From contig CALUHR010000008.1 of assembly GCA_944320495.1 (NCBI GenBank), positions 42,249 through 106,248 on the forward strand: 64,000 bases of DNA, read 5' to 3'. Source of the DNA: Candidatus Methanomethylophilaceae archaeon. Its GTDB lineage: Archaea > Thermoplasmatota > Thermoplasmata > Methanomassiliicoccales > Methanomethylophilaceae. The position numbers and the translations under genes were made by a program. Under the pieces are notes generated by a model that searched no databases, was not told where the DNA came from, and saw only the letters and a list, made by a program, of their open reading frames with translations. Positions 17,062 to 55,964 of the stretch are shown one piece after another. Positions within the stretch are counted from its first letter, which is position 1. Every line of letters starts with the position of its first letter.

Positions 17062-17835
17062 ATGCGCGCAGCGCTATACGCCAGGGTCTCGACGGACGAC
17101 CAGGCGGTCGAGGGTTTCTCGCTCGACGCCCAGGTCAAGCGCCTCGAGGCCTATTGCAGGGTCCGCGGCTGGGAGGTCGGCGGGATCTACAGGGACGAGG
17201 GGTTCTCCGGCAGGAACACCAAGCGTCCGGAGTACGAGAGGATGATGCGCGAGTCCGACTCGTGGGACGTCCTCCTCGTTCTGAAGATGGACCGTATCCA
17301 CAGGAACAGCGTCAACTTCGCCCGCATGATGGACGACCTGCGCGACATGGGCAAGGAGTTCAACTCGGTCCAGGAGAAGTTCGACACCACCACCGCCATG
17401 GGACGGTTCGTCATGGACATCATGCAGAGGATCGCCCAGCTGGAGAGCGAGCAGATCGGCGAGAGGACGTTCATGGGCATGGAGTTCAAGGCCCGCAACG
17501 GCACCGGAAACCTCGGCTCCGGCCACCCGTACGGATACGTGTACACCGAGCACGGCCTGGAGGTCGTGAAGGATGAGGCGCATACGGTGCGCGCGATCTA
17601 CAACATGTACGTAAGGGGCTCCACCATGGAGGACATCGCCGGATTCCTCAACAGCGCCGAGATCCCCGCCAAGAAGGGCGGCAAGTGGAACAGGCAGTCC
17701 GTCTGCAACATCCTCCACAACCCGCTCTACGTGGGATACTCGGAGTGGAACGGCATCCTGCGCAAGGGCGAGCAGCAGCCCATCGTCGAGATGGCGGTCT
17801 TCGAGAAGGTCAACGGGCCGTTGGAGATCCAGCGA
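17062..17835 (+). CDS. Serine recombinase (resolvase + recombinase domains), copy 1
   Basis: ALYARVST, DEGFSG, KMDRIHRN; CGA 17833-17835 overlaps the next ATG. Standard end 17856. Confidence 0.92.
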
Positions 17836-18692
17836 TGCGTGCGGCCATATACGTGAGGGTCTCCACCGAGGAGCAGGCCGCCGAGGGGTACTCCATCGAG
17901 GCCCAGAAGGAGCTACTCCAGGACTACTGCATCGTCGAGGGGTGGGAGGTCGCCGGCGTCTACGAGGACGACGGATTCTCCGGAAGGAACGACAAGCGTC
18001 CCGCCTACCGCAAGATGATGTCGGAGATGGACCTTTGGGATGTGGTCGTCGTCATCAAGATGGACCGTATCCACAGGAACAGCCGCAACTTCATGTCCAT
18101 GATGGACACGCTCACCAAGCATGGGAAGATGTTCGTGTCCTCGTCCGAAGCATTGGATACGACCAACGCCCTCGGGAGGTTCGTGGTCGACATGATACAG
18201 AGGCTCGCCCAGCTGGAGAGCGAGCAGATCGGCGAGAGGACGTACATGGGCATGCGCGAGAAGGCCGAGACCCTCGAGGCCGTCCAATCCGGTAAGAGGA
18301 CCATGGGCTTCACGCCGCCGTTCGGCTACCGTCTTGAGGACGGGGCACTCGTCGAGGACGAGGGGGAGCTCCCGATCGTCAGGCGCATGTTCGCCGAATA
18401 TGCCGAGGGCAGGCCCATGGATGCGATATGCTTCGGCCTCAACCGCGACGGGATACTCACCCGCAGGGGCAATCCCTGGAACAAGCGCAACCTCGCCAAC
18501 ATCCTCCACAACCCCGTCTACGCCGGGTACATGAGATGGGAGGACATCCTCATCCGCCACGATGCGGAGACGGTCCTCTCGCCGGAGCAGTTCAACGGCG
18601 TGCAGGAGCGCATCGCCTCCAGGATCAGGGACCCCTCCAAGAGGGGCGTGAATCTCCTTCCAACAGAGTCAGATTATGCGACGGGGATGCGA
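17835..18692 (+). CDS. Serine recombinase, copy 2
   Basis: AIYVRVST, DDGFSG, KMDRIHRN, TPPFGYR; CGA 18690-18692. Standard end TAG 18710. Confidence 0.92.
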
Positions 18693-18908
18693 ACCGGACG
18701 AGCCGGTTAGTTAACGGAGAACGTTCGGTGCAAATATCCCATATTATAAATAATGTATCCGAAAAAGTCCATTTGTTGACGTCTCAATCTCCATTGTCTG
18801 GCACATGCCTCTGGATGTCTATGCCTGTACGCATGCGCCACATATGGTATTAAATAGTGATTACGTCGAATCATTCCCCGGGTCCTAGACCCAATAGGAG
18901 GAAAACAA

Positions 18909-19433
18909 ATGACTGACGAATGCAAAACCATCGACCCGACGGCCTTCGGCCTGTTCTTCGTGGCCGTTGTGTCCCTTCCACTCGCCCTGGCCGGATTCTT
19001 CGGCTACATGGGCAACGAGTGGAACGCGACCATCATGGCTGGCGTCGGATCTCTGCTGATGGTAAACGGATTCTTCATTCTTCTCGCAGCGCTGTACGCC
19101 TACAAAGCCGGCAGCAACTTCGGATTCGTCGTATTCGGCCTCGTCTCCATGGGAGTGTTCTATGCCGGATACGGAGGGGGAGACCTCTGGATCAACGTCA
19201 CCTTCGGAATCATATTCCTGATCTGTCTGATCTGGTCCTACCGCGCAAAGACGCTGAAGACCCTGACGTTCATCCTGCTGACCACCGCCCTTGTGTTCAT
19301 CGCCAACGGCTGTGTTATCGAGACCGGTGCCGAGTGGTCCTGGCTGTTCCTCGGAATCGCCGCCATCCTCAACTTCATCCTCACTCTGTACCTGGCTTTC
19401 GCGCTCGCCGACGAGCACATCCGCTGTGTCTGA
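18909..19433 (+). CDS. Multi-pass membrane protein, possibly SatP/YaaH (GPR1/FUN34)-like
   Basis: GGAGG RBS; N-terminal DPTAFGLF resembles NPAPLGL; about 6 TM segments. Family call is tentative. Confidence 0.6.
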   Translation: MTDECKTIDPTAFGLFFVAVVSLPLALAGFFGYMGNEWNATIMAGVGSLLMVNGFFILLAALYAYKAGSNFGFVVFGLVSMGVFYAGYGGGDLWINVTFGIIFLICLIWSYRAKTLKTLTFILLTTALVFIANGCVIETGAEWSWLFLGIAAILNFILTLYLAFALADEHIRCV

Positions 19434-19507
19434 TCGGAGGACCTCAAACCCCTTACCGGCCTCTGGCCGGGACATCTTTATTTAAGCGTTCTCAATCACC
19501 GACCCTC

Positions 19508-19603
19508 ATGAAGAAGGAAATGAAGATCAAGATCGGTGCCTACTTCATGGTCATCATCATGGTCGTCGTCGTTGTAACGGCAGCCGCCTCCGCCCTGATC
19601 TGA
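19508..19603 (+). CDS. 31-aa single-TM small protein
   Basis: MKKEMKIKIGAYFMVIIMVVVVVTAAASALI; TGATG overlap with the SDR start. Confidence 0.5.
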   Translation: MKKEMKIKIGAYFMVIIMVVVVVTAAASALI

Positions 19604-20355
19604 TGATCGCCGTCGTCACCGGGGCATCGTCGGGCATCGGGGCCGAGTTCTGCAGGGCCCTGGACGGGGAGGGGCTGGATTCCATCTGGATCATCGCCAG
19701 GAGAGCCGACAGGCTGGAGGCCCTGGCATCCGAGCTCTCCACCCCCTGCGTCGTAATCCACGCGGATCTCACCGACAGGAAGCAGCTGTCCGAGCTCGTC
19801 GGACGCATAGGATCCTCCGGCGAGAGGGTCGACTACCTGGTGAACTGCGCCGGAGTCGGCAGGTTCGGAGAGACCTGGGAGCTCTCATCGGAGGAGACGC
19901 TGTCCATGATCGACCTGAACGTCTCCGCCCTCACGGAGATGTGCCGCGGATGCATCCCCCGCATGGAATCCGGATCCCGCATCATCAACGTCTGCTCCGC
20001 ATCCGCGTATCTTCCGCTGGAGCGCCTCAACGTGTATTCCGCCACCAAGGCGTACGTGCGCGCGTTCTGCAACGCCCTCGGAAGGGAGCTAAAGACCAGA
20101 GGCATCACGGTATTGGAGGTCTCCCCTGGATGGGTGGAGACAGATTTCATCCCGCTCTCCAGGTCCACAGGCGACGTTCCCGAGACTGTCTTCAAGCACA
20201 CCGTTAAGGCTCGCGACGTCGCCGTGAGGGCCATCGCCGACGCCAAGCACGGGAGGAAGCGCTCGATATGCGGCGCGTACAACAGGCTCCAGGTCTTCGT
20301 GTGCACCCACATGCCTCGCATGGCATCATACGTCTGGGGAAGGTCCCTGCTGTGA
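19603..20355 (+). CDS. Short-chain dehydrogenase/reductase (DltE-like)
   Basis: VTGASSGIG, NCAG, YSATK catalytic motif. Confidence 0.93.
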   Translation: MIAVVTGASSGIGAEFCRALDGEGLDSIWIIARRADRLEALASELSTPCVVIHADLTDRKQLSELVGRIGSSGERVDYLVNCAGVGRFGETWELSSEETLSMIDLNVSALTEMCRGCIPRMESGSRIINVCSASAYLPLERLNVYSATKAYVRAFCNALGRELKTRGITVLEVSPGWVETDFIPLSRSTGDVPETVFKHTVKARDVAVRAIADAKHGRKRSICGAYNRLQVFVCTHMPRMASYVWGRSLL

Positions 20356-20957
20356 CGACGGTCCTCCGCGAGTTCAGGGAGGGGGACTGCAAACCCATAT
20401 CCGCGATAATGTGCGACGTCTGGTCCATGGTGAGCTACGGCGCCGATGTCGCCATGCCCGGGTCGAGGATGTACTGCTGCCAATGCGTCCTCGGGTCGTC
20501 GTTCATCCGTGTGGCCGAGGTCGACGGGAGGATCGTCGGATGCGTCGGGGCCAGATACGGGAACGAGAGGGTCGATGCACCCTGGGCCGAGAGGATGCTG
20601 CGGCAAGAGAGGGATTCCTTGGCGAACTCCGAGGACGGGATGCGGATGATCGCCGAGTTCGAGTCCTACGATTCCATAGACAGGGACCTCGGCATCAGTA
20701 CCGAGATCGACACCGATGCGGAGCTCACCATACTCATCCTTTCCGAGGGTTGCAGGGGACTCGGACTGGGCAGGATGATGTTCAACGCCGCCTGCGATTA
20801 CCTTCGCTCCAAGGGCGCCGGGAGCATGATGCTGTACACCGACACCGACTGCAACACAGGGTTCTACGATGCCCTCGGCGCAGAGCGCGTGGCAACCTCA
20901 GGAATGATGTGCCTGGGGGAGCCGCTCGGAATGTTCCTTTACAGATATCCGCTGCGA
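20352..20957 (+). CDS. GNAT acetyltransferase
   Basis: GTG start overlapping the SDR stop; CRGLGLGR acetyl-CoA motif, YTDTDCNTGFY; ends MFLYRYPL-CGA. Standard end 21131 overlaps the convergent gene. Confidence 0.85.
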
Positions 20958-20964
20958 GGAGTCA

Positions 20965-22053
20965 TCGGAATCCGAACAGAGCCTTCGCATTGTCGACATG
21001 CTCCTCCGCATCGAGATGGAACGGACACCTCGAGGTGCACCTGCCACAGTGCAGACAGTCGGAAGCGTGCTTCGACAGAGCCCTGTAGTGCTCCCAGGCC
21101 ATCTCGTCGCCAACGGCGAACAAGTCGCTGAACTTGTTGACCTTCCCGATGTCGATGCCTGCGGGGCACGGGAGGCAGTGGTTACAGTAGACGCACTGGT
21201 CCTACATGTCCGCCGCCGTCAGGCCGCCGATGAACGAGTAGTCCCTCTCCTCCCTAGAAGCGTCTAGGTACGAGAGCATAGCCTCGAGCTGTCCGACTGA
21301 GCCTATTCCCGGGACCACGGACACTGCCCCGGGGCGGTCCAGCGCGTACTGAATGCACTGCGCCGGGGTCATCGCCCTCCCGAACGGGGAGGTCTCGGCA
21401 TCCATCAAGATGCCTCCCCCATAGGGCTTCATCACGACTATCCCGATCCCCCTGCGCTCGCAGTCGCGGTAGAGCTCCAGCCTCTCGGGGTCCATCACGA
21501 GGCCGTTGTCCCCGGCCACGAAGTCATAGGTGGGATTGAGGCTGAGCATGAAGTCGTCGACAACCGTTTCCTCGATGAAGCGCCTGCATATCTCTGGGGT
21601 GTGAGACGTGAACCCGATGTTGTCCACGCGCCCCTCGTCCTTCCATTCGACCAGCATGTCGTACAGCCCATCGGACATGATGCGCTCGTAGTCCTGGGCC
21701 TCGTCGACGCAGTGGAAGAGCAGCAGGTCGGCGTGATCGAGACCGTACTTCCTCAGCTCGGTCTCGAAGGACTCGCGGCACTCCTCGGGGTCCCTCGTGG
21801 CCGCGTACTGACCTCCTGGGTAGTGTACGCCGGTCTGCAGCTGGAACACCATCCCGTCTCCGTGCTCCCTGACGGCCTCCCTGATGGCGGGAGCGCAGGG
21901 GTCGTCATACATGGAGGTCTCCATGAAGTTGACGCCTGCGTCCATAGCCTTCGATACGATGGTGTGGACATCGTCACCCGCATCCCTGAGGAAGCCAGAT
22001 CCAAGACCCAGTGCGCTGATCCTTTTACCGCTACGAAGTCTCCTGTACTCCAT
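20965..22053 (-). CDS. Aldo/keto reductase with 4Fe-4S domain; in-frame TAG at 21202-21204 (putative Pyl)
   Basis: Paralog of 15882-16985; the frame continues past TAG as DQCVYCNHCLPCP...CLHCGRCTSRCP, ending GF-CGA-TGA. Confidence 0.88.
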
Positions 22054-22166
22054 GGGAACACCTACTAGTGACTGCATGTCAGCTATCTCCCGTATAATTA
22101 CTATGTGGTCACGCTCACGAGAAGACGACATCGATATAACCGCACATAGCGTCCACCTCATCAGAC

Positions 22167-23366
22167 ATGGGGCAGGACATGTGGTGGCTGATGCACGGCG
22201 ACATATCCGTCGCCTCGGTTCACATCGACAGATACGGTCATCTGACATCATTGGGAGAGATATTCGATGAAGATCATCTGCCAGTCGGTGTGAAGACCGG
22301 TGACAGGGAGCACACCCTCGAAGGACTCGATCGCTGGTGGTCGAAGCGCGCGATACCCATCTCAAGACCCGGCGTGTCAGCCATGTTGGAATCCATGGGG
22401 ATCGCATCCACGGAATCGCTTCAGATGATGTCCAAGGGACTGGGCCTCTCGGACTCCTATTGGATCCGTCCGGAAGGATCGGACCTGTCATGGTCGGACG
22501 TGAACTTCCACGATAACGATTTCTCCGAGGAGGTCGGCAACGCCCTGTTCAACCATGGCACGACCGACGTCCTGAACTTCGACTCCCCGGACTCCTCCTC
22601 GGACGGCAACCTCAGGAAGAGATGGGTGATCGAGGATGGGGTGAGGATCCTGATGAAAGGCGGGAGCGGCCAGATGCAGGAACCGTTCAATGAGGTCCTT
22701 GCATCAGAGATCATGCGTCGCCTGGACGTACGGCACGTCGACTACAATCTGAGATGGGTTGATGGCGAGCCGTTCTCCGTCTGTCCAGCGTTCACCGACA
22801 GCCGCACCGAGCTCGTGCCTGCCTGGTCCGTGCTCGCGACGTGCAAGAGAGAAGATGGGGAGACGCTTTACGACTTCACGAGACGCTGCTTCGAGTGCTG
22901 CGGACTGAAGGACCCCACCGCTTCCCTTGAGAGGATGATTGCCGTTGATTTCCTGATAGCGAATGAGGACAGGCACCTCGGGAACTTCGGTCTGCTCCGC
23001 GACCCCGAGACTCTGAAAACCAAGGGGTTCGCCCCGCTGTACGACAACGGGGCCTCGCTGGGGCATCGCGTGATCACGCTCTGGATAGAGGAGGGTTACG
23101 ACCTGATCTGCCGGCCGTTCAAGGTCACCCACGGAGAACAGATCCATCTGGTCAGGGACCTCGGATGGTTCGACCCCGACAGGCTGGAGGGCATGGACGA
23201 CTTCGCCAAGGATCTGTTCGATGGGTCAAAAGGGTTCGTGGACGAGCGCAGGAACAAGGCGATCATCGGATTCCTACAGAGAAGGATCGACAAGCTCGCC
23301 CAGTACGCCGAGAGTCCGGACTTCCGGGACGACCGGCACCTGGACCTGAGAGTGGTAAGCGGCTGA
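22167..23366 (+). CDS. HipA-like kinase (HipA_C domain), copy 1
   Basis: SSDGNLRKRW, LMKGG, EPFNEVLASEI, IANEDRHLGNFG, APLYDNG. Confidence 0.85.
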   Translation: MGQDMWWLMHGDISVASVHIDRYGHLTSLGEIFDEDHLPVGVKTGDREHTLEGLDRWWSKRAIPISRPGVSAMLESMGIASTESLQMMSKGLGLSDSYWIRPEGSDLSWSDVNFHDNDFSEEVGNALFNHGTTDVLNFDSPDSSSDGNLRKRWVIEDGVRILMKGGSGQMQEPFNEVLASEIMRRLDVRHVDYNLRWVDGEPFSVCPAFTDSRTELVPAWSVLATCKREDGETLYDFTRRCFECCGLKDPTASLERMIAVDFLIANEDRHLGNFGLLRDPETLKTKGFAPLYDNGASLGHRVITLWIEEGYDLICRPFKVTHGEQIHLVRDLGWFDPDRLEGMDDFAKDLFDGSKGFVDERRNKAIIGFLQRRIDKLAQYAESPDFRDDRHLDLRVVSG

Positions 23367-23818
23367 TGGTCGAGGCTATTCGGCGATCTCGTCCTGGACT
23401 CGTCTGTCTTCCTGTGACCCTGTCTCTTCGACTTCATATTACCCGCGGATGGCCTAGCTGACCAACTTCTCACGGAGAACCGTTTGTTCCCTTCCTCATC
23501 CGTAGCCGTGTGGGCCTCAACACAGGACATACGGTCACCGTGCCTGGGGCACTCTGTCTCGGGGCAGTCGCAGTTCAGTTGAGCTCCTGAGCCATGCGAG
23601 ATGGGATGGAGCATCAGGATAGACCTGTTTCCCGGACGGCGTATCTCGTCTTTCGTGTGCCGACACCTGCTGTACGGACTCCTGAACAGAGTTGATATTG
23701 TTATCATACAATGCTTAATGACAATTTTTGATTAATAAATTGGATTAAGATATCACATAAATTAATAATGTATGGTGATTGAGAAGATAGGATAAACCCT
23801 CGCGACATACGGTCATCC

Positions 23819-24988
23819 GTGTCGGAGGGACGTTTTCAGCTCATGCAAGGGGACCACCGGGTCGCAGAGGTGTGCATCTCCGACAACGGCATTATGACGG
23901 AGCTACGTGAGATGTTCGATCCGGAGAGGATGCCCTGGGGGACCATTGGCACCGACCCCGGCGATACCATCAGAAGGCTCGGAGAATGGTGGGGATATCG
24001 CTGCATCCCGAGGAAGAGGAACATCCAGGACGCACTGGGTCGCCTCGGATTCAGCTCGAGCGAGGCGCTCATGACCGCTGGCCTGGCGGTCAACATGACG
24101 GACCGCTACTGGATCCGCCCGAACGGGAGCGGCCTGTCGTGGGACGATGTCAGCCCCCACACCAACGACTTCTCCGAGACGCTGGGCAGGACGCTGCTCG
24201 GTAAGGGGGACGGGTTCGAACCGTCTCCGGACTGCGCCACCGACGGGATGGTCCCGAAGATGTGGACATCGGAACGTCGCCTGCTCAAAGGCGGGACGAC
24301 CCGCTGCAGGCAGCAGCCGTACAACGAGGTCCTGGCCTCGGAGGTCATGAGACGCCTCGACGTGGAGCACGTCGATTACGATCTGAGGCGCATCGACGGG
24401 AAGGTTGTCAGCTCGTGCCCGTGCATCACCTCAGAAGGGGTGGAGATGATACAGGCCAGATGTCTGATGATGACCCGCCCGATGGACAGGTCTAAATCCA
24501 TCTACCACCACCTCATGGAGAGATGCGGGAGCATAGGCCTCGTGGACCCGAAGGACTTCGTAGACAGGATGCTCGTCGTCGATCACATCATGGCGAACAA
24601 CGACCGGCACTACAACAACTTCTCCATCCTCAGGGACCCGGAGTCGCTAGAGGTCCTCGGCTTCGCCCCCATATACGACACGGGCTCGTCCCTGGGCTAC
24701 GACCTCCGGGTCGGGGACATCTCTGGATCGGAGACGAGGGGCAGGACGTTCAAGGCACGTCTCGACGACCAGTTGCTGCTCCTCGGGGACACGGACTGGA
24801 TCGATCTGGACGCTCTCGAGGGGATCGACTCCTTCGCCCGTCGTCTGATGGGAGGCTCGGAAACGGTCTCGCCCGAGAGGGTGGAAGCGGTCGTAGAGCT
24901 CCTGCTGTCCCGTATCGAGTCGCTGAGGGACCGCATCGAGAATCCACGCGGATTCCGCGACGAGCCGTCCGAGGACATACCGGTCCGA
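23819..24988 (+). CDS. HipA-like kinase, copy 2
   Basis: DGMVPKMW, LLKGG, PYNEVLASEV, MANNDRHYNNF, APIYDTG; ends EDIPV-CGA. Standard end 25123 reads into AT-rich DNA. Confidence 0.85.
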
Positions 24989-26394: not shown

Positions 26395-27585
26395 TCAGAG
26401 TTCGTCGCGCAGGTACATCATCATCCCCTGCAGGGAGTTGAGCACCTGGGAGTATCCGTATTCGAGCTGAGCCTCCTCGGGCGTCAGGGAGCCGACGTAC
26501 TCGTCCTGATGCCGGGGATCCCTGGATTCGCTGAGGACGGTGATGATCCTGCGGAATCCGTCGAGGACGCTGTCGTGGTCCTGGAAATCGATGGAGAGGA
26601 TCGCATCGCACACCGAGATGTCGGTCTTGAGGAAATCGACGATGTCGTCGCACACCTCGAGCGGTATGTCCCCGTTGACCGCCGAGTCGAGGAACAGATC
26701 GATCTTGGAGTCCTTCATGTCGCGGACGCGCTGTATGATGTCGACCTTCTCCCTGCTGAGGAAGGCGCCCTGCGCATTGCCCTGCGTTTCGACGGCGGCT
26801 TCGTCGGCGGGGGCCTCTTCGGGCTCGGGTTCGGAAGCGGGGATCTCGGATTCGGTCCCTTCGACCTCTGCGACAGGTGGTTCCTGCTCGACCGGTTCCG
26901 GTTCGGCAGAGGGAGCCTCCGGCTCGGTGACCTCCTCCTCGACAGGGGCCTGCGCCTCCTGGACGGGTTCGGCGCTGTATGCCGACTCTAGGACGGAGAG
27001 CTTCTGCTCGGCGAGCATGAGGTCGGTCTTCAGGGAGGCGATGGTCGCGCGTAGACTCCCGTTCTCTTCGGAGAGACGGTCGCGTTCCGCCTCGGCCTCG
27101 GACAGCTGGTCCCTGGCGGTCTGGGCGTCACCCCTGGCGAATTCGAGCTCGGACGACATCTCATCCACGCGGGCCCTGCAGGACTTGAGTTCATCCATCA
27201 CGGATGCGAGGGCATCGCTGTCATCGTGAGCGTTGAGCGATTCGGCGGCCTGCCTGATGATCTCGCGGACGCTGCCGAGCAGCTCGTCGTCGAATCCCTC
27301 CACGGTCGGTTCCGATTTGAGCGCATTGAACGCATCCTCGTCGGCCCTCTCCGACGAGGAGAGCCTCGACAGGTATTCCGGGGAATCAAGGGGATCCAGC
27401 TCGATGGCGGTTTCGCCCTCGGTGTCCAGGAGGGTATCGCAGGCATCGATGTCGTCCCCCAATGAGACGATGATATCGATGTACGTGTCGACGTTGGAGC
27501 TGTCGATCTTCGCCATCGAGGCGAAGACCATGATCTCGTTCAGCTTACGGTCCCTTACCCTGGTGATCAGGTTTGCATCCCACAT
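26395..27585 (-). CDS. Acidic coiled-coil hypothetical protein
   Basis: ATG 27585 (MWDANLITRV) lies downstream of a CGA cluster; central heptad region and Glu/Pro-rich linker. Confidence 0.7.
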   Translation of the reverse strand: MWDANLITRVRDRKLNEIMVFASMAKIDSSNVDTYIDIIVSLGDDIDACDTLLDTEGETAIELDPLDSPEYLSRLSSSERADEDAFNALKSEPTVEGFDDELLGSVREIIRQAAESLNAHDDSDALASVMDELKSCRARVDEMSSELEFARGDAQTARDQLSEAEAERDRLSEENGSLRATIASLKTDLMLAEQKLSVLESAYSAEPVQEAQAPVEEEVTEPEAPSAEPEPVEQEPPVAEVEGTESEIPASEPEPEEAPADEAAVETQGNAQGAFLSREKVDIIQRVRDMKDSKIDLFLDSAVNGDIPLEVCDDIVDFLKTDISVCDAILSIDFQDHDSVLDGFRRIITVLSESRDPRHQDEYVGSLTPEEAQLEYGYSQVLNSLQGMMMYLRDEL

Positions 27586-27645
27586 GAGGCACGAATCGTG
27601 TCGATGTGATATAGAGTTGCGGATGCGTATTCGCTTGAATCGGAT

Positions 27646-28419
27646 TCGAGGCGAGAGGCTGCGGTCGGAGGAGAGCGGATAATCTGAATTGAATGCGCAT
27701 CTGGCGTACATGGCGGCCACATATCTGGGCATCTCCCTGCGGAAGGCCGTGAGCGCATCGGATTCCTTCATGTCCAGGACGTCGCCGAACATGGAATCGA
27801 ATCCCTCCTCGGACACCGTGCCCAACGAGATGCAGACCTTCGAGATCTCGGAACTCTCGACGTTGCCGAGGGAAGCGATGCGAAGCAGCACGGAGCACTC
27901 TCTCCTGGTGACGGAGATGTAATCGGTAATCCCCTCCAGTATCTCCGGGTCCTGTCCAGAGCAGCGTTCGGACGCGCGGTCCATGAGGTCCATGACACGG
28001 CGGAACACCAGGGAGTCGCTGTCTGTGAGAGAGCATTCCGGCCTCCCATCGCGGAAGATGTCCAACGCCATCATGAGCAGCGGGGTCTGGCCGGTGAGCT
28101 CCTGTATCATCCAGACGAAATGACCCTCGTCCTCCATGTCCTCCCTGTCCAGCCTGTCGAGATAGGAGGAGAACATCTCCGTCGGCATGGGAGGGCATCC
28201 CTCGGTCAGGGTGTCCATCATCTCCTCGAACTCTGTCAGGTCGTTGACTCCGATCTTCGCGATGCACCGGGCGTAGTTGATCTGTCCCGCAAGGATCCTG
28301 ACCTTGATCGACCTCTCAGTCTCGCTCAGCGACTGGTCGAACGTTGCGGCGGCTATCTCGCAGCTCTTGCGGACGATGATCCTGCGCAGAATCTGTATGT
28401 CGAGATAGTCGAATAACAT
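27646..28419 (-). CDS. Hypothetical protein
   Basis: 258 codons ending SSDRSLSP-CGA; merged with the downstream gene under the standard code. Confidence 0.65.
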
Positions 28420-28567
28420 GTTCTCTCACTCCTTTGCATCAATTAAATCTTGTAAAGCTATCACATGAATTATTCTATATTTATCATCAAGCAATCTTCT
28501 AATGCAACCTCATCGCGAGATGCGTTAGGGCCCCCATCGGAATCCGCTATATCAAATGGCTGGGGAA

Positions 28568-30277: not shown

Positions 30278-30385
30278 GGTCTTCCATATCGACGGAAAGG
30301 TAAAAATCCGCTTCGGTTCGTCTACGTTTGAAGGGATGGAAGTCGTGAGCGATTATGTAATTGATGACCTTTGATGCATGGCCGT

Positions 30386-31297: not shown

Positions 31298-31391
31298 CGG
31301 CCCGCGATTGACTGCGACGGTTAAAACAGTTCGTCAGGGCCGTTCAGTGTGACTGCGCCAAGGTTAGATAGTATCCGTCCATTGCGCGGTC

Positions 31392-32732: not shown

Positions 32733-32737
32733 GTCCC

Positions 32738-34426
32738 ATGTTCATACCCACCACCAGGGAGGAGATGGACCGCCTGGGCTGGGACCGGGCGGACATCCTG
32801 CTGGTCTCGGGTGACACCTACACCGACAACTCCTACAACGGGACCGCCCTGGTGGGCCACTGGCTGATGGACCACGGGTACAGGGTCGGCATCATAGCAC
32901 AGCCGAGGGTCAACACGGGGGAGGACATCTCCCGCCTCGGCCGCCCCAGGTTGTTCTGGTCCGTCTCGGCCGGATGCGTAGACTCCATGGTGGCGAACTA
33001 CACGCCGACCAGGAAGTTCCGCAAGGAGGACGACTTCACCCCGGGAGGCGTCAACGACCGCCGTCCGGACAGGGCCTGCATCGCCTACACCAACCTGATC
33101 AAGAGGCACTGCAAGGGGGAGCCGGTGTTCCTGGCGGGCGTCGAGGCCAGTCTCAGACGCATCGCGCACTACGACTTCTGGTCCGACTCCGTCCGCCGCT
33201 CCGTGCTCTTCGACGCGAAGGCCGACGGGATCGTCTACGGGATGGGGGAGCTGACCAACCTCCAGATCGCCGAGAGGCTGGATTCCGGCGATGACTGGAG
33301 GGACCTCCGCGGCGTCTGCCACGCATCCTCATCGAAACCGGACGGATGCGTGGAGATGCCCTCGTACGAGGAGGTCTCCAGGAGGGACGATCGGAGGGCG
33401 TTCATGAGGGCGTTCTCCATCCTGAGGCACAACTCCGACCCCGTCACCGCGAGACAGCTCTGCCAGGCCCACGGGAACCGCTGGCTGGTGCAGAACCGCC
33501 CCCAGAGGTGCATGACCACGGAGGAGCTCGACGCGGCCTACGAGTCCTCCTTCGAGAACAGGGTCCACCCCTTCTACGCCGGAGGCGGACGCGTCGCCGC
33601 CCTGGACACCGTCAGGAACTCCGTCACCACGCATAGGGGATGCTACGGGGACTGCTCCTTCTGCGCCATAGCGGCGCACCAGGGGACGACGGTCGTCTCG
33701 AGATCGCACGACTCCATCATGAGGGAGGTCCGTCGCATGGCCGCCTCCGAGGGTTTCGACGGCGTCATACGCGATGTGGGAGGGGCCACGGCCAACATGT
33801 ACGGGATCGAATGCACCAAGAAGCTCTCGAACGGGAGGTGCGAGGATAGGAGATGCCTCGGAGGGAGACCGTGTCCGAGGCTGCCGATCGACCACTCGGA
33901 GCAGATCCGCCTGCTGGATGACGTATCGTCGGTGGACGGTGTGCGCAGAGTGTTCATCGCCTCCGGCATAAGGCACGACATGGTGCTCGCGGACAGGCGC
34001 AGGGGCGGGGACTACCTGGACAGGGTCGTCTCCGAGCACGTGTCCGGACAGATGAAGGTCGCCCCGGAGCACGTGTGCGACGATGTTCTCAGGCTGATGG
34101 GCAAGCCCGGCAGGGATGCCCTGCTGGGATTCAAGGGCATGTTCGACGAGTGCTGCAGGGAGCGCGGGAAGGAGGAGTTCCTCACCTACTACCTGATGGC
34201 CGCGCATCCCGGATGCACCCGGGACCACATGCGCGAACTCGCATCCTTCTGTACCAGGGAGCTCGGCACCCATCCCGAGCAGGTGCAGGTCTTCACCCCG
34301 ACCCCTTCCACGTATTCGACGGCAATGTGGTGGTGCGGCACCGACGAGAGGGGCCGTCCGGTGACCGTCGAACGCTCCATCCAGGGCAGGCAGAGGCAGA
34401 AGGAGATGGTCTGCGGGAGGCGCCGA
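32738..34426 (+). CDS. YgiQ/UPF0313 family radical SAM protein
   Basis: DILLVSGDTY, SAGCVDSMV, THRGCYGDCSFC, APEH, QVFTPTP; ends VCGRR-CGA overlapping the next ATG. Standard end 34588. Confidence 0.92.
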
Positions 34427-35097
34427 TGGACGCCTGTCTCTCCCGCTTGGTCTCCGAACGCTGCGGATGCGAGGTGGACGCTTCGTTCATCAGAAGGAAG
34501 GAGTTCCGCTTCGCATGGGGCACGCGCGACGGACGTCCCGTCATCCAGATATCGGACTATCTCCGGGACGCCCCGGACCAGGTCCTGACGGACTTCGGGG
34601 AGATGCTGGTCCGTCGCTCCAGGAAGCAGAGGACCGCCGTTCCGGCGTCGTTCTGCGAATACGTGGCCACCGACGACTTCGTCATATCCCGGAGGCCCAC
34701 CTACATCGATCGCAGCAGGAACCTGCTCCGCACCGACATCGGGGACCACGCCTTCATACCGGACTCGATCCAGAGGCTCCTGGACGCGGGGCTGCTGACA
34801 CCCGAGGACATTCGCAACTCCTGGTTCTCCTGGACCCGCAGGGACAACCTGCGCAGGCTGGGGTTCTGCTCCACGCTGTTCCGTGTCGTGGGGATATCCT
34901 CTGCCCTGGACTCGCCGGAAGTCCCGGATTCCATCAGGGACTATGTGGTCTACCATGAGTGCCTGCATCTCAGGCAGGGATACCGCCCCGGCGGGCGCAT
35001 CCATGATGCGGAGTTTCGTCGTTGGGAGCGCTCCTACCCCGGATGGAAGGAATGCGAGAACGCCCTTCGCACCCTCCACCGCCGGACAGGTTCTTGA
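34426..35097 (+). CDS. Zinc metalloprotease, M48/SprT-like (HExxH)
   Basis: DYVVYHECLHL..HDAEFRRWE. Confidence 0.75.
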   Translation: MDACLSRLVSERCGCEVDASFIRRKEFRFAWGTRDGRPVIQISDYLRDAPDQVLTDFGEMLVRRSRKQRTAVPASFCEYVATDDFVISRRPTYIDRSRNLLRTDIGDHAFIPDSIQRLLDAGLLTPEDIRNSWFSWTRRDNLRRLGFCSTLFRVVGISSALDSPEVPDSIRDYVVYHECLHLRQGYRPGGRIHDAEFRRWERSYPGWKECENALRTLHRRTGS

Positions 35098-35119
35098 ATG
35101 ACGAGCCGATTCGGCATCC

Positions 35120-35995: not shown

Positions 35996-36056
35996 TGGGG
36001 AGCGATCCCTCTGCCAAGAAAGTTAAAGCAGTGAGTGCATCGCCGTGGCGATTCCA

Positions 36057-36725
36057 ATGACCGCAGGCGATTCTCTCGAGACCATGGCGGCTGGGGGAGA
36101 CCCAGATTCGCAGTTCCAGCTCGGCGTCCAGTACCTCTACGGCACCGGCGACACCCCCAAGGACGCCTCCAAGGCCGCCGAATGGTTCAGGAAGGCCATG
36201 GAGAGCGGACATGTCCCCGCCATCAGGGAGTACGGGATTCTCGTCGCATCCAGCGAGGGCGTCGAGGCCGACCCGGAGGAGGGGGCACGCATCCTCGGAA
36301 GGGCGGCCGACGAGCTCGACCCCAGCGCGATGTACCATCTCGGCCTGATGTACGAGAAGGGCATCGGCGTGCCCGTGGACATGCAGAAGGCCGTCAGGCT
36401 CCTCGCTTACGCGGCCATGATGGGCTATCCCGGCGCCGACATCGACGCACAGCGCATCGATGACATCCTCACCGAGGAGCGCAACAGGCGCCTGAAGTCC
36501 AGGCCCGTCATCAAGCTCATGCTCTCCGACGTGGACGTGGAGGCGGCCTGCTGCCCGAGGATGCTTGACGACCTCCTGGCCCAGAGGACCGTTTTCACCG
36601 AGAGCGAGGAGGGCCCCGCCCTGCTCGGCGACGACGCCCAGGGATTCGAGGCCGTCTTCCACGCGTGCCCCTACTGCGGAGCTCCCATCCAGATCGTTCC
36701 GAGGGACAAGCAGTACTTCGGATGA
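36057..36725 (+). CDS. Sel1-like repeat protein with C-terminal CxxC element
   Basis: SQFQLGVQYLYG, AMYHLGLMYEKG, CPYCG. Confidence 0.85.
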   Translation: MTAGDSLETMAAGGDPDSQFQLGVQYLYGTGDTPKDASKAAEWFRKAMESGHVPAIREYGILVASSEGVEADPEEGARILGRAADELDPSAMYHLGLMYEKGIGVPVDMQKAVRLLAYAAMMGYPGADIDAQRIDDILTEERNRRLKSRPVIKLMLSDVDVEAACCPRMLDDLLAQRTVFTESEEGPALLGDDAQGFEAVFHACPYCGAPIQIVPRDKQYFG

Positions 36726-37679
36726 TCGCATCCGGGCGGCCAGGAACTCGGCCGCCTCGGGGCATCCTATCTCGGATGACAGCCTGATCAGCCCCATGCC
36801 CTTGCGCTCGTCGGCTTCGATGCCCTCCCCGTTGAGGTACATCAGCCCGAGCATGAATATGGCCAGTGGATCCCACGATTCCGCCGCACCCCTGAAGAGG
36901 CTTCTGGCGGAGCCGAGGTCCCTCTCCACCCCTAAGCCTGAATAGTACATCATCCCCAGCGTGAGCATGGACTCGCGATCGCCGCGTTCCGCCGAGCATG
37001 ACAGCATCCGGGCGGCCAGGACCTCGTCCTTCGCGACGCCGTCGCCGTACAGGTAGCGGAGGCCGATCTCCCTCAGCGAGTTGGGCTCCCCGTGCGATGC
37101 GGCGATGCCGTACCACTCCACCGCCTTTGCCGGATCCTTCCCCGTCCCCTCGCCGGTCTCGAACATGCGCGCGACGTTGAACATCGCATCGACGTTGCCA
37201 TGGTCGGCGGATTTCGAGAAGAGGGCGAACGCCTCAGACCTGTCCAGACGTGTGCCCCAGCCGTTGTAGTACAGGATCCCTAGGTTGCACTGCGCGCCCG
37301 GATGGCCCTGGTCGGCGGCAAGTAGATACCACTTGGCGGCCTCCATCTTGTTGACCGGTATGCCGAGACCCTTGTCGCAGATGTAGCCGAGTCCGTACTG
37401 CGCCTCGGAGTACCCCTGGTCCGCTGCTTTGCGGTACCAGTGGATGGCCTCCGTCGCATCGGCCGGCATCCCGATCCCGTTGAGCAGGAAGTAGCCGTAG
37501 GTGTACTGCGCCTCGGCATATCCGGAACGGGCGGCATCGGAGATGAGGGAGACCGCCCTCTTCGGGTCCCTCTCGACGCCGTCGCCTTCGTAACAGCGTC
37601 TGCCCAGAATGTACTGCGCCTCGGGATCGCCGCGTTCGGAACGGGCGGTCAGCTCCAGGATGGAATGGCCGTCGGACAT
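36726..37679 (-). CDS. Sel1-like repeat protein
   Basis: About 8 Sel1 repeats, ends EAAEFLAARM-CGA abutting the convergent gene's TGA. Standard code overlaps about 900 nt of the opposite genes. Confidence 0.9.
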
Positions 37680-37836
37680 ATGACCATAAACCGACTATCT
37701 CCAATTAATGATGTCTGTCGAACTGGGACGCATCCATCGTTCCAGGATGGGACAGTCACCCATCGTCGGCTGATCGCACGGATCCCACGCGTCTTTCGAT
37801 GCAGAATCTATATGTCCGTACTCCATTCCGAATCCC

Positions 37837-38394
37837 ATGGCAGACCCACAGACCGAGGAGTACACCCTGGAGGAGGCCGCTGCGATCATAGAGGCGGCCA
37901 TCGACAGGAAGAAATCTGAGATTGAGTGCCTGCGGAAGCGCGCGAACCGCCTCAAGAAGGAGGAGAAGGTCAACGCCAACCGCCAGCTCGTCGCCTATCT
38001 CGAGGCTGACGTGACCGCATACACCACCGTTCTCGCCGACATGCGCGACGACGACGCCCTCCTCGAGGGTCTCGACCTGGACGCCGAGCCCGTGGAGGTC
38101 CCGGACGACTACCAGGACTACATCGACGGACTCTCCGCGGACGACCTCGAGAACGAGATGGACGCGGAGTCCATCCGCGCCGACTACTGCGACGCCGTCG
38201 TCGAGGAGATGTGCACCTCCATCGGCGAGCAGGCCCTCAGCTCCAAGAAGATGGTGAAGGCCCTCCTGGAGGACCCGTACGCACTGGAGCAGATCGGCGA
38301 GGTCGTGTTCTACGACGACTACCTCTACGACCTCTTCAAGACCATCTCCGCCGAGAAGGCTGAGAAGAAGTCCAAGAAGAAAAAGAAGAAGTGA
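37837..38394 (+). CDS. Acidic hypothetical protein with poly-Lys tail
   Basis: 185 aa, strong host codon bias, ends KKSKKKKKK. Confidence 0.8.
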   Translation: MADPQTEEYTLEEAAAIIEAAIDRKKSEIECLRKRANRLKKEEKVNANRQLVAYLEADVTAYTTVLADMRDDDALLEGLDLDAEPVEVPDDYQDYIDGLSADDLENEMDAESIRADYCDAVVEEMCTSIGEQALSSKKMVKALLEDPYALEQIGEVVFYDDYLYDLFKTISAEKAEKKSKKKKKK

Positions 38395-39089
38395 TCCCGG
38401 TGCCCGCAAGCAAGTACGAGAGGGAGCTGAGATTCATCGATTCCGAGGTCGCCAGGCTCAACCGCGGACTCAAGGACCTAGCGGAACGCATGCCCGACAG
38501 CCCTTCAGAGGCGGCCAGAAAGGCCGACGAGGTTCTGGGCATCCAGGACAAGATCGCCACCCTGATCGCCAGGAAGCGCGAGATCGAGGACTCCTTCATC
38601 AGGGCCGGGATGGACGTCCCCGACATCGGACGCAGCATGAACGCCACCGTCCACAACGCCGGGGGATTCGAGATCCACGGGACCCAGGAGGCGGAGACCG
38701 TGGCCGGCCTTAAGCCGACCCAGATGTCCATCGAGGGCATCAACGAGGACATCCGCAGCATCAACGCGGAGCTCGCCTCCATCGAGGACCGCCGGGTCGC
38801 CGCCGAGATCGAGGGCGACTCCGACGAGGTCCAGAAGCTCGACATGATGGCATCGTCCCTCCGTTCCAGGAGGGACTCCCTGATCCAGTCCGCCAGAGAG
38901 ATCCGCTCCGCCCCCAAGGAGGAGGAGCCCTCGCAGGTGAGCGGCGAGGATCTCGAGAGGATCGCCAGACTCGAGTCCGAGACGGCCTCCCTGCGCTCGC
39001 AGGTCTCCGACGTGAGGAACGGCCTGCAGGACGTCAAGGAGCAGCTCAGGCAGATCATGCTGGCCCTGGGCATCGAACCGGACGAATGA
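38391..39089 (+). CDS. Coiled-coil hypothetical protein
   Basis: GTGA overlap with the upstream stop; heptad-rich. Confidence 0.75.
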   Translation: MIPVPASKYERELRFIDSEVARLNRGLKDLAERMPDSPSEAARKADEVLGIQDKIATLIARKREIEDSFIRAGMDVPDIGRSMNATVHNAGGFEIHGTQEAETVAGLKPTQMSIEGINEDIRSINAELASIEDRRVAAEIEGDSDEVQKLDMMASSLRSRRDSLIQSAREIRSAPKEEEPSQVSGEDLERIARLESETASLRSQVSDVRNGLQDVKEQLRQIMLALGIEPDE

Positions 39090-41162
39090 TCGTCCCTCCG
39101 CGGCCTCGATGAGGCCGCGGATCAACTCCCCTTCCCTTGCGGACCAGAAGCCGACGTCACATACCACGACGAGTCTGCGTCTGGCCCTTGAGACCGCCGT
39201 GTTGATCACCCTTCTGCCCATCGGCGTCTCCGAGCTCGTGAACCTCAGGGGGACGTCCCTGTTCACGGTCCCGCTGTCCGCCACGCTGAGCACCACCGTG
39301 TCCCATTCCCTCCCCTGGGACCCGTGGACGGTCATCACGCAGTCTGAATACCTGCGCCCCACCTTGGACCTCAGGAGCCTGCACTGCGCCGTGTAAGGCG
39401 AAAGGACGCACACATCCGAGGGGTCTGGCGACGAAGCCTTCAGCAGCCTGGCTATGGCATCCGCCTCCGCCCTGTTCTCGCGGGTGTCGCGCTCCCCGCA
39501 GACGACGTCGATGCACTCTATCGACATGTCCGTCTCCGAGGAACCGGTCATGCCGTTGCGGTAGACGTAGCGGTCCAGGACCCTGGCGAGGGATTCCCCG
39601 AACCTCCTCGAATCTGTCAGGTCCCTGCGCACTGTGACCGAGAAGGACGGCCCGGAGCCGGAGATGTACTCGGCACGCAGGTCGATCAGGCCTCTTGTGA
39701 GGACGGTCTCGCAATGGAGGGCGGACATGTTCCAGATGAACGCATCGGAAAGCCATCCGCCCGACTGAGCCCTGTCCATGAGCAGGGCCTCGTCGAGCTG
39801 GGTCACCGGCGGAAGCTGCATGTGGTCCCCGAACATGGCCACCGGCACGCCGTTGGTGAAGAGGGCGAGCGCCTGCACCAGGCCACAGTATCCGGCCTCG
39901 TCGAGGAATATCCTGTCCACGTCGAGCTCCATCCTCCCGTCCTCGGGGGAGCCCTTCGGACGGAATCTGGAGATGAACTGGTGGGGCGTCGCCGCGATTA
40001 TCGGAGCACTGGCTATCCTGTTCCCGGTCGACCTGGACCTCAGCACGGACATCTCATCGTAGAGCCTGGAGATCTCCGCCGATATCTCCTCCGCGCTCCA
40101 CTCGCCGTACTCGGAGATCTCCGCCGCCGGACGCTCGCGGTCGAAGAGGGCGGAATGGAGCTATCTCGCGGCCTCCGACAGCGGTACGCCCTCCGACATT
40201 ATCGCGGCGGTCGAAGGGCGCATGGAAGCCACCGTCATTATGTCCCCGATGATGCGCTCCCTCTCAGGATCACCGTCGGCATACCCCTCCGCATCGTCCA
40301 GGATCCCGGCGGACGTCAGGTGCTCGAGCTGGGCCCTTACGGAATCGCAGGCCCTCTCGTAGAGGACCTCCTCGAGATTCCCGATGGACCTGGCACATCC
40401 GTCTATCCTCATCTGGGCCTGGTTGTCCTCGCACATGTCCGGATGCTCCGCGAGGAACCCCTTCGTCGGGACGCCCAGCCTGACTATCCCCTTCGGGACC
40501 CCGTCCTCGCCGAACGCCCCCAGGATCCCCCTCAGCACCTGCTCGACCGAGTTGTTGGTGGGTGCGAACACCGCGACCCTCTCACCGGCCTCGAGACAGC
40601 CGCGGATGCAGGATGCCAGAACGAACTGGGTCTTGCCCGTGCCCGGGGCCCCCCAGACATACGACATCGACGACGAGGCGACCGCCAGGGCCGCCGATTC
40701 CTGCTGTCCGGTCGGGACGCCGGGATATTGCGGCTCGACCGTGTTCTGAGGCTCGCCGGGGGCTCTGACGTAGGCCCCGTACCTGCGGTAGAAGTCCCCC
40801 GCGGCCAGTACCAGGAACTTCATGTCCGCGAGGACCGAGATCCTGGCACCCTCCACGGACATGACGCGGAGGACCTCGGCATCAGGCCTGACCACGATGG
40901 TCCTCGAGATCTCGTCGTACCTCGTGAACCCGGCATCCTGCTCGCCCAGGACCCTCTCGCCTATCCTGAGCAGGAGGCCCGAGGTGTCGCTGAGGCGGGC
41001 CGCCAGATGCAGTATCGCGAAGCCCTGCCTCACATCGGCGGAGGTCACCAGGGTCTCGGACATCCCCATCGGTGGATCCGTCACCCACTGCATGTCCTCC
41101 ATGTAGCGGTAGACGGCATCGGCCGATCCGGAGAACACCGCTGATATCTCTTCCCCATCCAT
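39090..41162 (-). CDS. Superfamily 1 (DNA2/NAM7/Upf1-like) helicase with in-frame TAG at 40161-40163
   Basis: Walker A WGAPGTGKT before the TAG; FLDEAG, GDHMQLPPV, SPYTAQ, TVHGSQGREWD, NTAVSRARRRL after it in the same frame; ends EAAEG-CGA. Confidence 0.88.
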
Positions 41163-41234
41163 GACGCCGTCTGCCGCAATGGGGATTTAAGCGGAACGGC
41201 GCAGGCTACACTCTTCGATATAGGGAGCGTAGCA

Positions 41235-41669
41235 TCAGGAGTAGAAGCTGGCCCAGTTCTGCTCGATGTCCTTGTCATCGAACTTGGGGACTCCCTCGGA
41301 GAAATCGTCCCAGTCCACGGGCTCCCTGGAGAGCACGACGAAGGAGTTGTTCCCTGTGTCGAACTTGATGGCGTCGGAGGAGACCATGATCTTGACGTTG
41401 AACAGCATGCTGATGTTCAGGTCCTTGTAGTCCCCGTCGGGGTCCTCGACGGAACGGTCCCTGCGCAGGCTGTTGATGCGGATCTTGCGCTCCTTGAACA
41501 GGCCCTTCACGACCTTGGTGGCCCTGTCGAGGTAGTATCCGTCGCCCAGTTCCAGCGACCAGTACTCGACGCCCGCCGCATCCGGGCCGACCTCGGCCTC
41601 CGTCCATCCGGTGTAGTCGTCCTTGCTGGTGCCAGCGTAGATCCTGTATTGAATCTCCTTCGAGATCAT
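41235..41669 (-). CDS. Hypothetical protein
   Basis: 144 aa, host-like codon usage. Confidence 0.65.
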   Translation of the reverse strand: MISKEIQYRIYAGTSKDDYTGWTEAEVGPDAAGVEYWSLELGDGYYLDRATKVVKGLFKERKIRINSLRRDRSVEDPDGDYKDLNISMLFNVKIMVSSDAIKFDTGNNSFVVLSREPVDWDDFSEGVPKFDDKDIEQNWASFYS

Positions 41670-41803
41670 CCCGTACCCTGCCTCTCCATGGATGTCCGAT
41701 ATTTAGCTCTTAATCGGCCCCATCCCGGTTTTCGATGGCCGTTATCCCGCCCCGTGAGTAACCGGGGCAATCATCATTATAGCGTCCTCCCGATACGGGT
41801 CGC

Positions 41804-42685
41804 ATGTTCGCGGACGCCTGTGGCAAGGTCTCGGAGTTCTCCAGACCTGTGGTCATCTCGACTAGGCATCAGGACGGCACCATCAAGACCGAATGCGGCA
41901 CGTTCATCGTCCTCAACCGGGACGGCTGGATAATCACCGCCGGCCACATGTACGACTCCTATGTGAAGTACCAGGGGGACCGCAAGAAGGCCGAGGAGAT
42001 CGAGGAGCTCAACGCCGCCCGCAGCTCCAGGCCCGGTGCCCCGTCGCAGCCGGTGAAGCTCGATCCCGGCATGATAACGAACCACTCCTTCTGGTGGGGC
42101 TGGGACGGCGTCCGCATCACCAACGTCTACGTCAACAGGCAGCTGGACATGGCCGTGGGAAGGCTGGAGCCCTTCGACCCCGAATGGGTCCGTGAGTATC
42201 CGGTCCTCAGGGACCCGGACCATCTCCGCCCGGGCACCAGCGTGTGCAGGTCCGGATACCCGTTCGTCAACATCACCGCGTCCTGGGACGACGCGACCTC
42301 CTCGTTCAGGATACCCAAGATCCCGATCAGGGACCTGATATTCCCCAACGAGGGCATACACACGCGGACCGTCGACCGCGGCAGGACCAGGGACGGCGAC
42401 TTCCGCATGCTCTACGTGGAGACGTCGTCGCCCGGGCTCAAAGGCCAGTCGGGGGGCCCCATCTTCGACAGGGAGGGGAGGATCTACGCGATGCAGGTGC
42501 AGACCATGCACATGCCCCTCGGCTTCCATCCCACCGTCGAGTACGACGGCAAGACCGTCGTGGAGAACCAGTTCATGAACGTCGGCCTCGGGGTCCATGT
42601 GGCCACCATCAGGGACGTCCTCGACAGCCGCGGCGTGAGATACGACGCCGAGGAGGACGCCGGGGGATACAGGATCGTGGGCCGA
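41804..42685 (+). CDS. Trypsin-like serine protease
   Basis: ITAGH, DMAV and GQSGGP triad motifs; ends CGA-TGA overlapping the next ATG. Confidence 0.85.
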
Positions 42686-43191
42686 TGACCGAACCGCTCT
42701 TCACCGTGTCGACGGCGTACACGCTGTCCACCTACCGTGACTACAACCGCGCCGTGCAGGCCGCCAACGGAGTCTACCGGAGGATCTGGCTCTCCGCCGT
42801 CATCTACATCGCGGCCGGCGCCCTCCTCTGCCTGCTCCTGGAGACGTGGATGCCCGCGCCGCTGTTCGTCATACTCGCGGCGGTGAACATATGGCTGAAC
42901 TTCAGGAACCTGAGGAGGGCGGAGGACTTCCAGTACCAGCAGGAGCAGCTCATCGGCACGGTGCGCTACGACTTCTACGACGACAGGATCGATGTCACCA
43001 CCACCGACGGTACGACCCAGAACCCGTACTCCGGCGTTCAGCGCGTCTACGAGACCGACAGGTCGTACCTGATCATGTTCGCGCCCATGTCCGGGGCCAT
43101 CCTCCCCCGCGAGGACTGCAGCCCCGAGCTCATCGAGTTCCTCGCTACACGGTTTAAGTTTGAAAGACTACGTTCCCCCCGTTCGATTTAA
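42685..43191 (+). CDS. YcxB-like membrane protein
   Basis: Two TM helices then YDFYDDRI..VYETDRSYLIM..ILPRE. Confidence 0.7.
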   Translation: MTEPLFTVSTAYTLSTYRDYNRAVQAANGVYRRIWLSAVIYIAAGALLCLLLETWMPAPLFVILAAVNIWLNFRNLRRAEDFQYQQEQLIGTVRYDFYDDRIDVTTTDGTTQNPYSGVQRVYETDRSYLIMFAPMSGAILPREDCSPELIEFLATRFKFERLRSPRSI

Positions 43192-55955: not shown

Positions 55956-55964
55956 GCGAACACC

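Follow-up and report, generated by a model that had tools for sequence, protein, structure and literature searches.

The 64,000-nucleotide window analysed here, a stretch of contig CALUHR010000008.1, carries three pairs of co-directional genes joined by the pentamer CGATG, in which an in-frame CGA at the end of the upstream gene shares its A with the in-frame ATG of the next, and the subject of this work is the probable role of that CGA as a stop codon. The initial annotation placed the three junctions at 17833-17837, 34424-34428 and 42683-42687 and likened them to the classic TGATG overlap, a layout expected of translational coupling only if CGA terminates; at all three sites the geometry is exactly as described. 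The window belongs to a genome of 1.77 Mb with a GC content of 61.6% and an archaeal-type tRNA set. The host is a Methanomethylophilaceae archaeon of a Methanoprimaticola-type genus and a gut methanogen. McrA and PylS are both found in its genome (G000; PylS at C9:67854-68522), and the single gene for the release factor aRF1 encodes a protein with a 100% match in an uncultured Methanomassiliicoccales metagenome-assembled genome (MAG) and 91% identity to that of Candidatus Methanoprimaticola sp. MG2 (Methanomethylophilaceae). Genes were called with a self-trained hexamer gene finder, which under translation table 11 gives 1653 genes at a coding density of 88%.

The three CGATG junctions of the window

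The three junctions and their genes lie on the + strand. At the first, serine recombinase 1 (17062..17835), which combines Resolvase and Recombinase domains, carries its terminal CGA at 17833-17835. The table-11 open reading frame (ORF) runs for 6 codons beyond this CGA, to a TGA at 17854-17856, and the orthologues terminate in ...VNGPxxx-TGA at the equivalent position. The junction itself (17823..17837) is composed of a GGAG at 17823-17826, a spacer of 8 nt and the CGATG at 17833-17837. Its counterpart is also CGATG in the relative G013, and in other family members it is TGATG or a TGA that lies 1-5 nt ahead of the start. The downstream partner, serine recombinase 2 (17835..18692), is a paralogue of recombinase 1 and ends in turn at a CGA (18690-18692), with a TAG 5 codons later. 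Because both recombinases (17062-18692; loci L166-L195) are kept adjacent and co-directional in 90 of the 101 Methanomethylophilaceae genomes searched, the tandem pair is judged not to be a mobile-element remnant.

The second junction (34415..34428) connects a YgiQ-type radical SAM protein of 562 residues (32738..34426, terminal CGA at 34424-34426) to a YgjP-like metallopeptidase with an HExxH motif (34426..35097, 223 residues), which starts at the ATG of the CGATG and whose relatives begin at the homologous Met-Asp or Met-Gly. A GGGAGG at 34415-34420 precedes the CGATG at 34424-34428 with a spacer of 5 nt, and the relative G018 shares the CGATG. Under table 11 the YgiQ frame continues beyond the CGA as a tail of 53 codons and a TGA at 34586-34588 (34427..34588), which overlaps the gene of the metallopeptidase in a different frame, is rich in Ser, Arg, Thr and Pro and gave no Pfam match. 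Compared with G018, this region is identical at 44 of 52 positions in the YgiQ frame and at 47 of 52 in the peptidase frame, the upstream part of YgiQ being identical at 157 of 162; the tail thus reads as probably untranslated. Among 18 same-genus YgiQ orthologues, 11 stop 44-52 residues past the QVFTPTP motif, in the region of the host CGA, and the remaining 7 extend 64-227 residues beyond it. In three sister-species pairs the CGA of one YgiQ gene is exactly aligned with the TGA of the other, and the change is silent in the overlapping downstream gene. An interpretation of these YgiQ genes as cases of tolerated stop loss was abandoned after the genome-wide tests described below. The identical YgiQ ORF is encoded by two independent metagenome assemblies (ENA ERZ28614358 and ERZ24773495; loci L244 and L245), in which the public gene calls give a YgiQ of 616 residues and a metallopeptidase of 164 residues without a Pfam match. 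These calls are concrete annotation damage at a CGATG junction.

At the third junction, a trypsin-like peptidase (41804..42685) ends in ...RIVG-CGA and a TGA (42686-42688) follows directly, so that CGA and TGA stand in tandem over the ATG at 42685-42687 that opens the gene of a YcxB-like membrane protein (42685..43191). The initial annotation was right about the CGATG geometry here and overlooked that the hexamer CGATGA (42683..42688) makes the junction an ordinary ATGA overlap as well. Relatives of the peptidase end in ...RIVG-TGA or ...RIVE-TGA within an ATGA overlap (GGATGA or GAATGA), and the host protein has the same C-terminus, RIVG, if CGA terminates.

The same geometry with a genuine TGA had been noted at 19601-19605, where the TGATG is indeed present, but its upstream partner shrinks to a micro-ORF of 31 residues (19508..19605) if CGA is a stop. 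The larger table-11 ORF of 227 residues at 18920-19603 is left uncalled by the gene finder even under table 11, and it is fragmented when CGA terminates. The micro-ORF encodes the very hydrophobic peptide MKKEMKIKIGAYFMVIIMVVVVVTAAASALI upstream of an SDR gene (19603-20355), which is opened by the TGATG, and its product (19508-19603) may act as a leader or be a small membrane peptide.

CGA at gene ends across the genome

The bare pentamer is common in the window (400 copies against 292 expected), and therefore only frame-aware statistics are informative. Shuffled codons had been proposed as the yardstick for the junctions, and by this measure CGATG is far in excess: in-frame CGA followed by TG occurs 119 times in the table-11 calls of the genome, against 24.1±4.8 and a maximum of 40 over 200 codon shuffles. 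As many as 49 of the 119 fall on called downstream ATGs (Fisher test against non-junction NNA|TG pairs: odds ratio 8.8, p=5e-23). Codirectional overlaps of more than 4 nt in the TGATG frame relation (ATG, GTG and TTG starts) number 75, and in 34 of them CGA covers the first base of the start, the background share of CGA among in-frame NNA|TG pairs being 3.3%. CGATGA accounts for 15 of the 252 four-base NTGA overlaps. Since this excess is already present under table-11 calls, the result is independent of assuming that CGA is a stop.

The distribution of CGA within genes points the same way. Called genes contain 1.3 CGA per 1000 codons under table 11, and the 698 in-frame copies are concentrated at the 3' end, with counts by ORF decile of 18, 1, 5, 8, 6, 10, 26, 68, 135 and 421. 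The control codons CGG, CGT, AGA, CGC and AGG are flat by decile, the rare ones rising modestly in the last. Over the 25 codons that precede the first in-frame CGA the coding score averages +0.84 per codon, and beyond this CGA the average drops to -0.83, while after seven control codons it stays at +0.5 to +1.1. An apparent use of CGA as an ordinary codon, at 13 per 1000 in ORFs of at least 400 codons, was discarded as inflated by antisense shadow ORFs; the copies in called genes are nearly all at gene ends. The deciles, the coding score and the Pfam splits described below are thus not those of an ordinary arginine codon spread along genes, as the standard code would have it, and CGA is gone from conserved gene-internal positions with the sole exception of codon 78 of aRF1.

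When CGA is added as a stop to TGA, TAA and TAG, the four-stop annotation contains 1758 genes, which end in TGA (1234), CGA (441, 25%), TAA (63) and TAG (20). Most of the TAA and TAG "stops" of table 11 are fallback stops behind a CGA, and the lineage relies almost wholly on TGA and CGA. The number of codirectional overlaps longer than 35 nt falls from about 50 under table 11 to 3. The genome-wide junction count that the initial annotation had proposed comes to 52 CGATG against 33 TGATG one-base overlaps, beside 249 four-base NTGA overlaps. CGA cannot form the four-base ATGA geometry, and for this reason its share is 61% among the one-base overlaps but 25% among all stops. A Shine-Dalgarno core precedes the downstream ATG at 88% of the CGATG junctions (n=52), 82% of the TGATG junctions and 67% of the NTGA overlaps, compared with 26-29% of random internal sites, and it is specifically GGAGG at 48% of the CGATG junctions. 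Thus, the ribosome-binding site of the downstream gene lies within the end of the upstream one and, provided that CGA terminates, the last base of the terminator is shared with a start codon on the same strand, a geometry that is directly seen. The base at position +4 is T after 54% of CGA stops and after 29% of TGA stops, and A is avoided after CGA. The palindrome CGATCG is found at 59 of the 441 CGA stops. The T preference and the palindrome may stem from the context of termination, from a restriction-modification motif or from the history of mutation. An additional stop within 5 codons is weakly enriched after CGA (22.7% against 16.2%), in part owing to CGATGA.

In the window, 29 of 59 complete genes have a terminal CGA. 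Four genes with scores of 226-495 are missed or fragmented under table 11, at 7904-9193 (+), 36726-37679 (-), 39090-40052 (-) and 62281-62976 (-), where the ORFs continue for 194-343 codons past the CGA into the neighbouring genes. The table-11 ORFs 26395-28419 (-) and 55497-57215 (-) are in-frame fusions of two genes across a CGA, the former with four CGAs within 16 codons of a junk-like linker. Across the genome, the table-11 tails beyond CGA have a median length of 24 codons.

Eight table-11 ORFs with a CGA in their middle each consist of two genes, with the CGA lying between unrelated Pfam families. The pairs are PdxT and Sel1; a NifH-like and a nitrogenase-like protein (C5:79781-81901, L234); an unassigned N-terminal part and a T4SS coupling protein; a GmhA-like protein and a HAD protein (C13:193618-194700, L236); two FMN reductases; Pelota and an HMGL-like protein (C1:21187-23502, L238); an ABC ATPase and an ABC membrane plus ATPase protein; and an ion channel and an Asn synthase. 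In Pelota the eRF1_3 match runs to residue 346 and the CGA follows as codon 347, a distance of 1 residue; in the other fused ORFs the distance from the first Pfam match to the CGA is 4 to about 70 residues.

Orthologues provide a second line of evidence, for which the first 800 kb of the complete same-genus genome G008 (GC 53.6%) served as the reference. The G008 orthologues of 113 CGA-ended host genes end in TGA (94), TAA (12), CGA (6) and TAG (1), and the C-termini coincide for 63% of CGA-ended and 77% of TGA-ended genes. The host codon aligned with a G008 TGA is TGA in 164 cases, CGA in 30, TGG in 4 and GGA in 4; CGA is therefore the only frequent "stop loss", which is not what neutral decay predicts. 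For nine CGATG junctions whose neighbours are conserved, the G008 counterpart is TGATG (2), ATGA (3), TGA with a gap of 4-5 nt (3) or CGATG (1), and more generally the orthologous junctions in relatives carry a TGA as TGATG, as ATGA or with a gap of 0-5 nt. In the aRF1 neighbourhoods of 80 species, the first CGA stands at the orthologous stop 33 times and elsewhere 4 times, all 4 in lineages where CGA serves as a sense codon. Among the closer loci (aRF1 identity of at least about 78%), most have 0-0.3 CGA per 1000 aligned codons, with one at 0.46. The CGA of the host thus occupies the positions of its orthologues' standard stops.

The usage varies among relatives. In three further species of the genus, genes ending in CGA number 31 of 202 (15%) in G013, with 3 CGATG and 3 TGATG junctions, 15 of 166 (9%) in G004 and 27 of 759 (3.6%) in G008. 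The pattern was not seen in G078, from another genus, where CGA is even along genes at 1 per 1000 codons, and in G090 the codon is rare and likewise evenly distributed. All three CGAs of G131 (genus g17) lie in the last decile, and in three loci from a clade further away (L101, L103 and L106, aRF1 70-72% identical) CGA is found at orthologous gene ends. This possible second lineage with CGA ends may be independent or an earlier stage of the same change. L101, L103, L106 and G131 (L281-L285) have neither the CGA at codon 78 of aRF1 nor the tRNA mismatch described in the next section.

The initial proposal that this layout makes sense only if CGA terminates is supported by the decile counts, the change of sign in coding score, the four-stop annotation, the orthologue stops, the Pfam boundaries and the Shine-Dalgarno cores. 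As read from gene structure and orthology, genes in this genome end functionally at CGA, and the CGATG junctions have the anatomy and the frequency of coupling junctions. We put the probability that CGA is a fourth termination codon beside TGA and the rare TAA and TAG, with CGAUG as the same one-base overlap as UGAUG, at about 85%.

Decoding of CGA and alternative explanations

A single clear sense use of CGA was found, at codon 78 of the sole aRF1 gene, where it encodes a conserved Arg in ...IAARLK. The putative target codon of the factor is thus conserved in frame within the factor's own gene, in the manner of prfB. In every locus of the genus clade that has CGA at this position the context is NCT CGA CTN (GCT or TCT), while the flanking synonymous sites vary, and the base at +4 is C. 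The tRNA-Arg(UCG) gene is retained as well. Its loop-closing position 31·39 is mismatched in 24 of the 24 genus members where the gene was found, as A·A, C·A or U·C, although the other stem pairs covary, and the same position is canonical in 12 tRNAs from 10 other genera. Anticodon stems of four base pairs alter decoding (PMC13092985). In several complete genomes of the genus, including G008 and G015, tRNA-Arg(UCG) was not found by BLAST and pattern search and is absent or diverged; an odd "tcg" tRNA call with C33 in G008 was set aside. Genus g17 was considered as a parallel for the tRNA and dismissed, as the stem is canonical in most of its members and shows a 27·43 mismatch in a few.

These features can be assembled into a possible mechanism. 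The ribosome would complete the upstream protein at CGA, and the Shine-Dalgarno sequence inside the end of the upstream gene would hold or recruit the small subunit, allowing the downstream ATG that shares the A to be used. Termination would be brought about by the single aRF1, which would read CGA and outcompete the retained but presumably weakened tRNA-Arg(UCG). The CGA at codon 78 would act as negative feedback on the level of aRF1, comparable to the in-frame UGA of bacterial prfB. The CGATG junctions were most probably derived from TGATG or from a nearby TGA by T-to-C transitions, the mutated T lying outside the downstream ORF or at one of its synonymous positions. For the complete scheme, in which CGA is a true fourth stop read by aRF1 against a tRNA-Arg(UCG) weakened by the 31·39 mismatch, aRF1 tunes itself through its own CGA and CGAUG couples genes like UGAUG, we see a chance slightly better than even.

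Several observations weigh against a fourth stop. The essential aRF1 gene needs its codon-78 CGA to be read as an amino acid, and the tRNA-Arg(UCG) gene is kept with a normal overall shape; CGA is therefore no absolute stop, and some read-through is to be expected. The NIKS and YxCxxxF motifs of aRF1 are unchanged, and none of about 15 genus-specific aRF1 residues could be attributed to recognition of CGA or of the first base. They include N51, which adjoins a glutamate that is probably the equivalent of E55 of eRF1. The third junction of the window would work with its TGA alone. All gene calls rest on one self-trained finder, and termination and coupling are inferred throughout from DNA.

The alternatives differ in how much of this they can accommodate. 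If CGA were a plain arginine codon, CGATG would be a decayed TGATG, and upstream proteins that had lost their stop would carry real tails overlapping the next gene. A single TGA-to-CGA transition, silent for the downstream gene at these junctions, would be enough, and a tRNA-Arg(UCG) is present. However, around a quarter of the proteome would then bear random tails (24 codons in the median) and fusions such as that of Pelota to homocitrate synthase, and neither the near-total loss of CGA inside genes nor the contrast between CGA (30) and the other one-step stop losses, with TGG (4) and GGA (4) at background, would be explained. This makes plain decoding a highly improbable account. An artefact of sequencing or assembly, in which a motif causes T to be miscalled as C, could draw on the palindrome CGATCG after 59 of the 441 CGA stops. 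It is effectively refuted, since the pattern recurs in many independently assembled genomes, complete ones included, and the YgiQ ORF is identical in two more assemblies, and since no such error could deplete CGA from gene bodies.

The two other explanations concede that CGA is special and place the cause elsewhere. Editing of C to U in the mRNA could turn the terminal CGA into an ordinary UGA, which would account for the retention of tRNA-Arg(UCG), and the preference for U at +4 could be the context of the editing site. Against this, editing would have to skip the CGA of aRF1, and the depletion of CGA inside genes demands an editing that hardly depends on context, yet U is missing at +4 of 46% of CGA stops. 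No archaeal system for C-to-U editing of mRNA is known to us, and no search was made for a candidate deaminase; the odds of this explanation appear slim. About as improbable is a CGA that is effectively unassigned and very slowly decoded, with the stalled ribosomes freed by rescue (for example by Pelota) in place of recognition by aRF1. The codon is very rare in the whole family, including genera that have no CGA gene ends, and the mismatched tRNA-Arg(UCG) could decode poorly. Nevertheless, stalling and rescue at a quarter of the genes, without hydrolysis of the peptidyl-tRNA, seems costly, and it offers no reason for the conserved CGA of aRF1 in its fixed context or for a stop-like bias at +4.

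Comparison with known systems

To our knowledge, all published cellular codes read CGA as sense, and sense-to-stop changes have so far been established for organelles alone. If true, the fourth stop would be the first sense-to-stop change in a free-living organism, and it would have taken place in the eRF1-type release system that Archaea share with eukaryotes. The lineage would offer a natural system for studying how first-base stop recognition can relax and how a codon is captured in the continued presence of its tRNA. In practice, table-11 calls for a widespread gut genus would be wrong for up to a quarter of the genes, with false upstream tails, truncated downstream proteins (the metallopeptidase of 223 residues reduced to 164), fused neighbours and missed genes. 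The CGATG junctions would be the sites worst hit by this error and also a simple marker of the code change that can be counted from DNA alone.

No account of a CGA stop codon in Methanomassiliicoccales turned up in the literature searched. The present work contributes the analysis of the junctions, a test against neutral stop loss, the Pfam boundaries within fused ORFs and the 31·39 mismatch of the tRNA. According to a 2024 preprint, no alternative code had been established for Archaea before its own proposal of TAG as Pyl. The nearest match in the literature, a 2026 preprint on two hydrothermal-vent archaeal MAGs in which CGG encodes Trp, considered CGA as possibly a stop and left the question open (bioRxiv 10.64898/2026.04.02.715157). 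These MAGs resemble the present case in being archaeal and in lacking CGA in recognisable domains. In contrast, they come from unrelated organisms with about 50% GC, tRNA-UCG was not found in them, and gene ends were not tested there. The yeast factors eRF1/eRF3 detectably decode a lone terminal CGA as a stop, competing with tRNA-Arg (Wada and Ito 2018, PMC7379694). That misdecoding plays a minor part, at a codon that yeast decodes poorly, whereas in the host CGA is apparently the normal end of a quarter of the genes.

The CGATG junctions are closest to the known UGAUG and AUGA overlaps, with which they share the co-directional arrangement, the base common to terminator and start, the Shine-Dalgarno sequence in the end of the upstream gene and orthologous junctions based on TGA; they differ in that the terminator is CGA. 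The aRF1 gene can be set beside bacterial prfB, which encodes RF2 and is autoregulated through an in-frame UGA. In both, the gene of a release factor carries its own codon in frame at a conserved site. Here, however, there is no frameshift, the synthesis of full-length aRF1 would depend on read-through by tRNA-Arg(UCG), and regulation is suggested by analogy. The nearest precedents for the code change are organellar, namely AGA and AGG in vertebrate mitochondria (table 2), UCA in Scenedesmus mitochondria (table 22) and UUA in Thraustochytrium mitochondria (table 23). As in these codes, a former sense codon is found at gene ends and has vanished within genes. In contrast to them, the change would concern a free-living archaeon with about 1750 genes and an eRF1-type aRF1 in place of a bacterial-type factor, in which the cognate tRNA gene has been kept and one conserved sense use of the codon persists in the release-factor gene.

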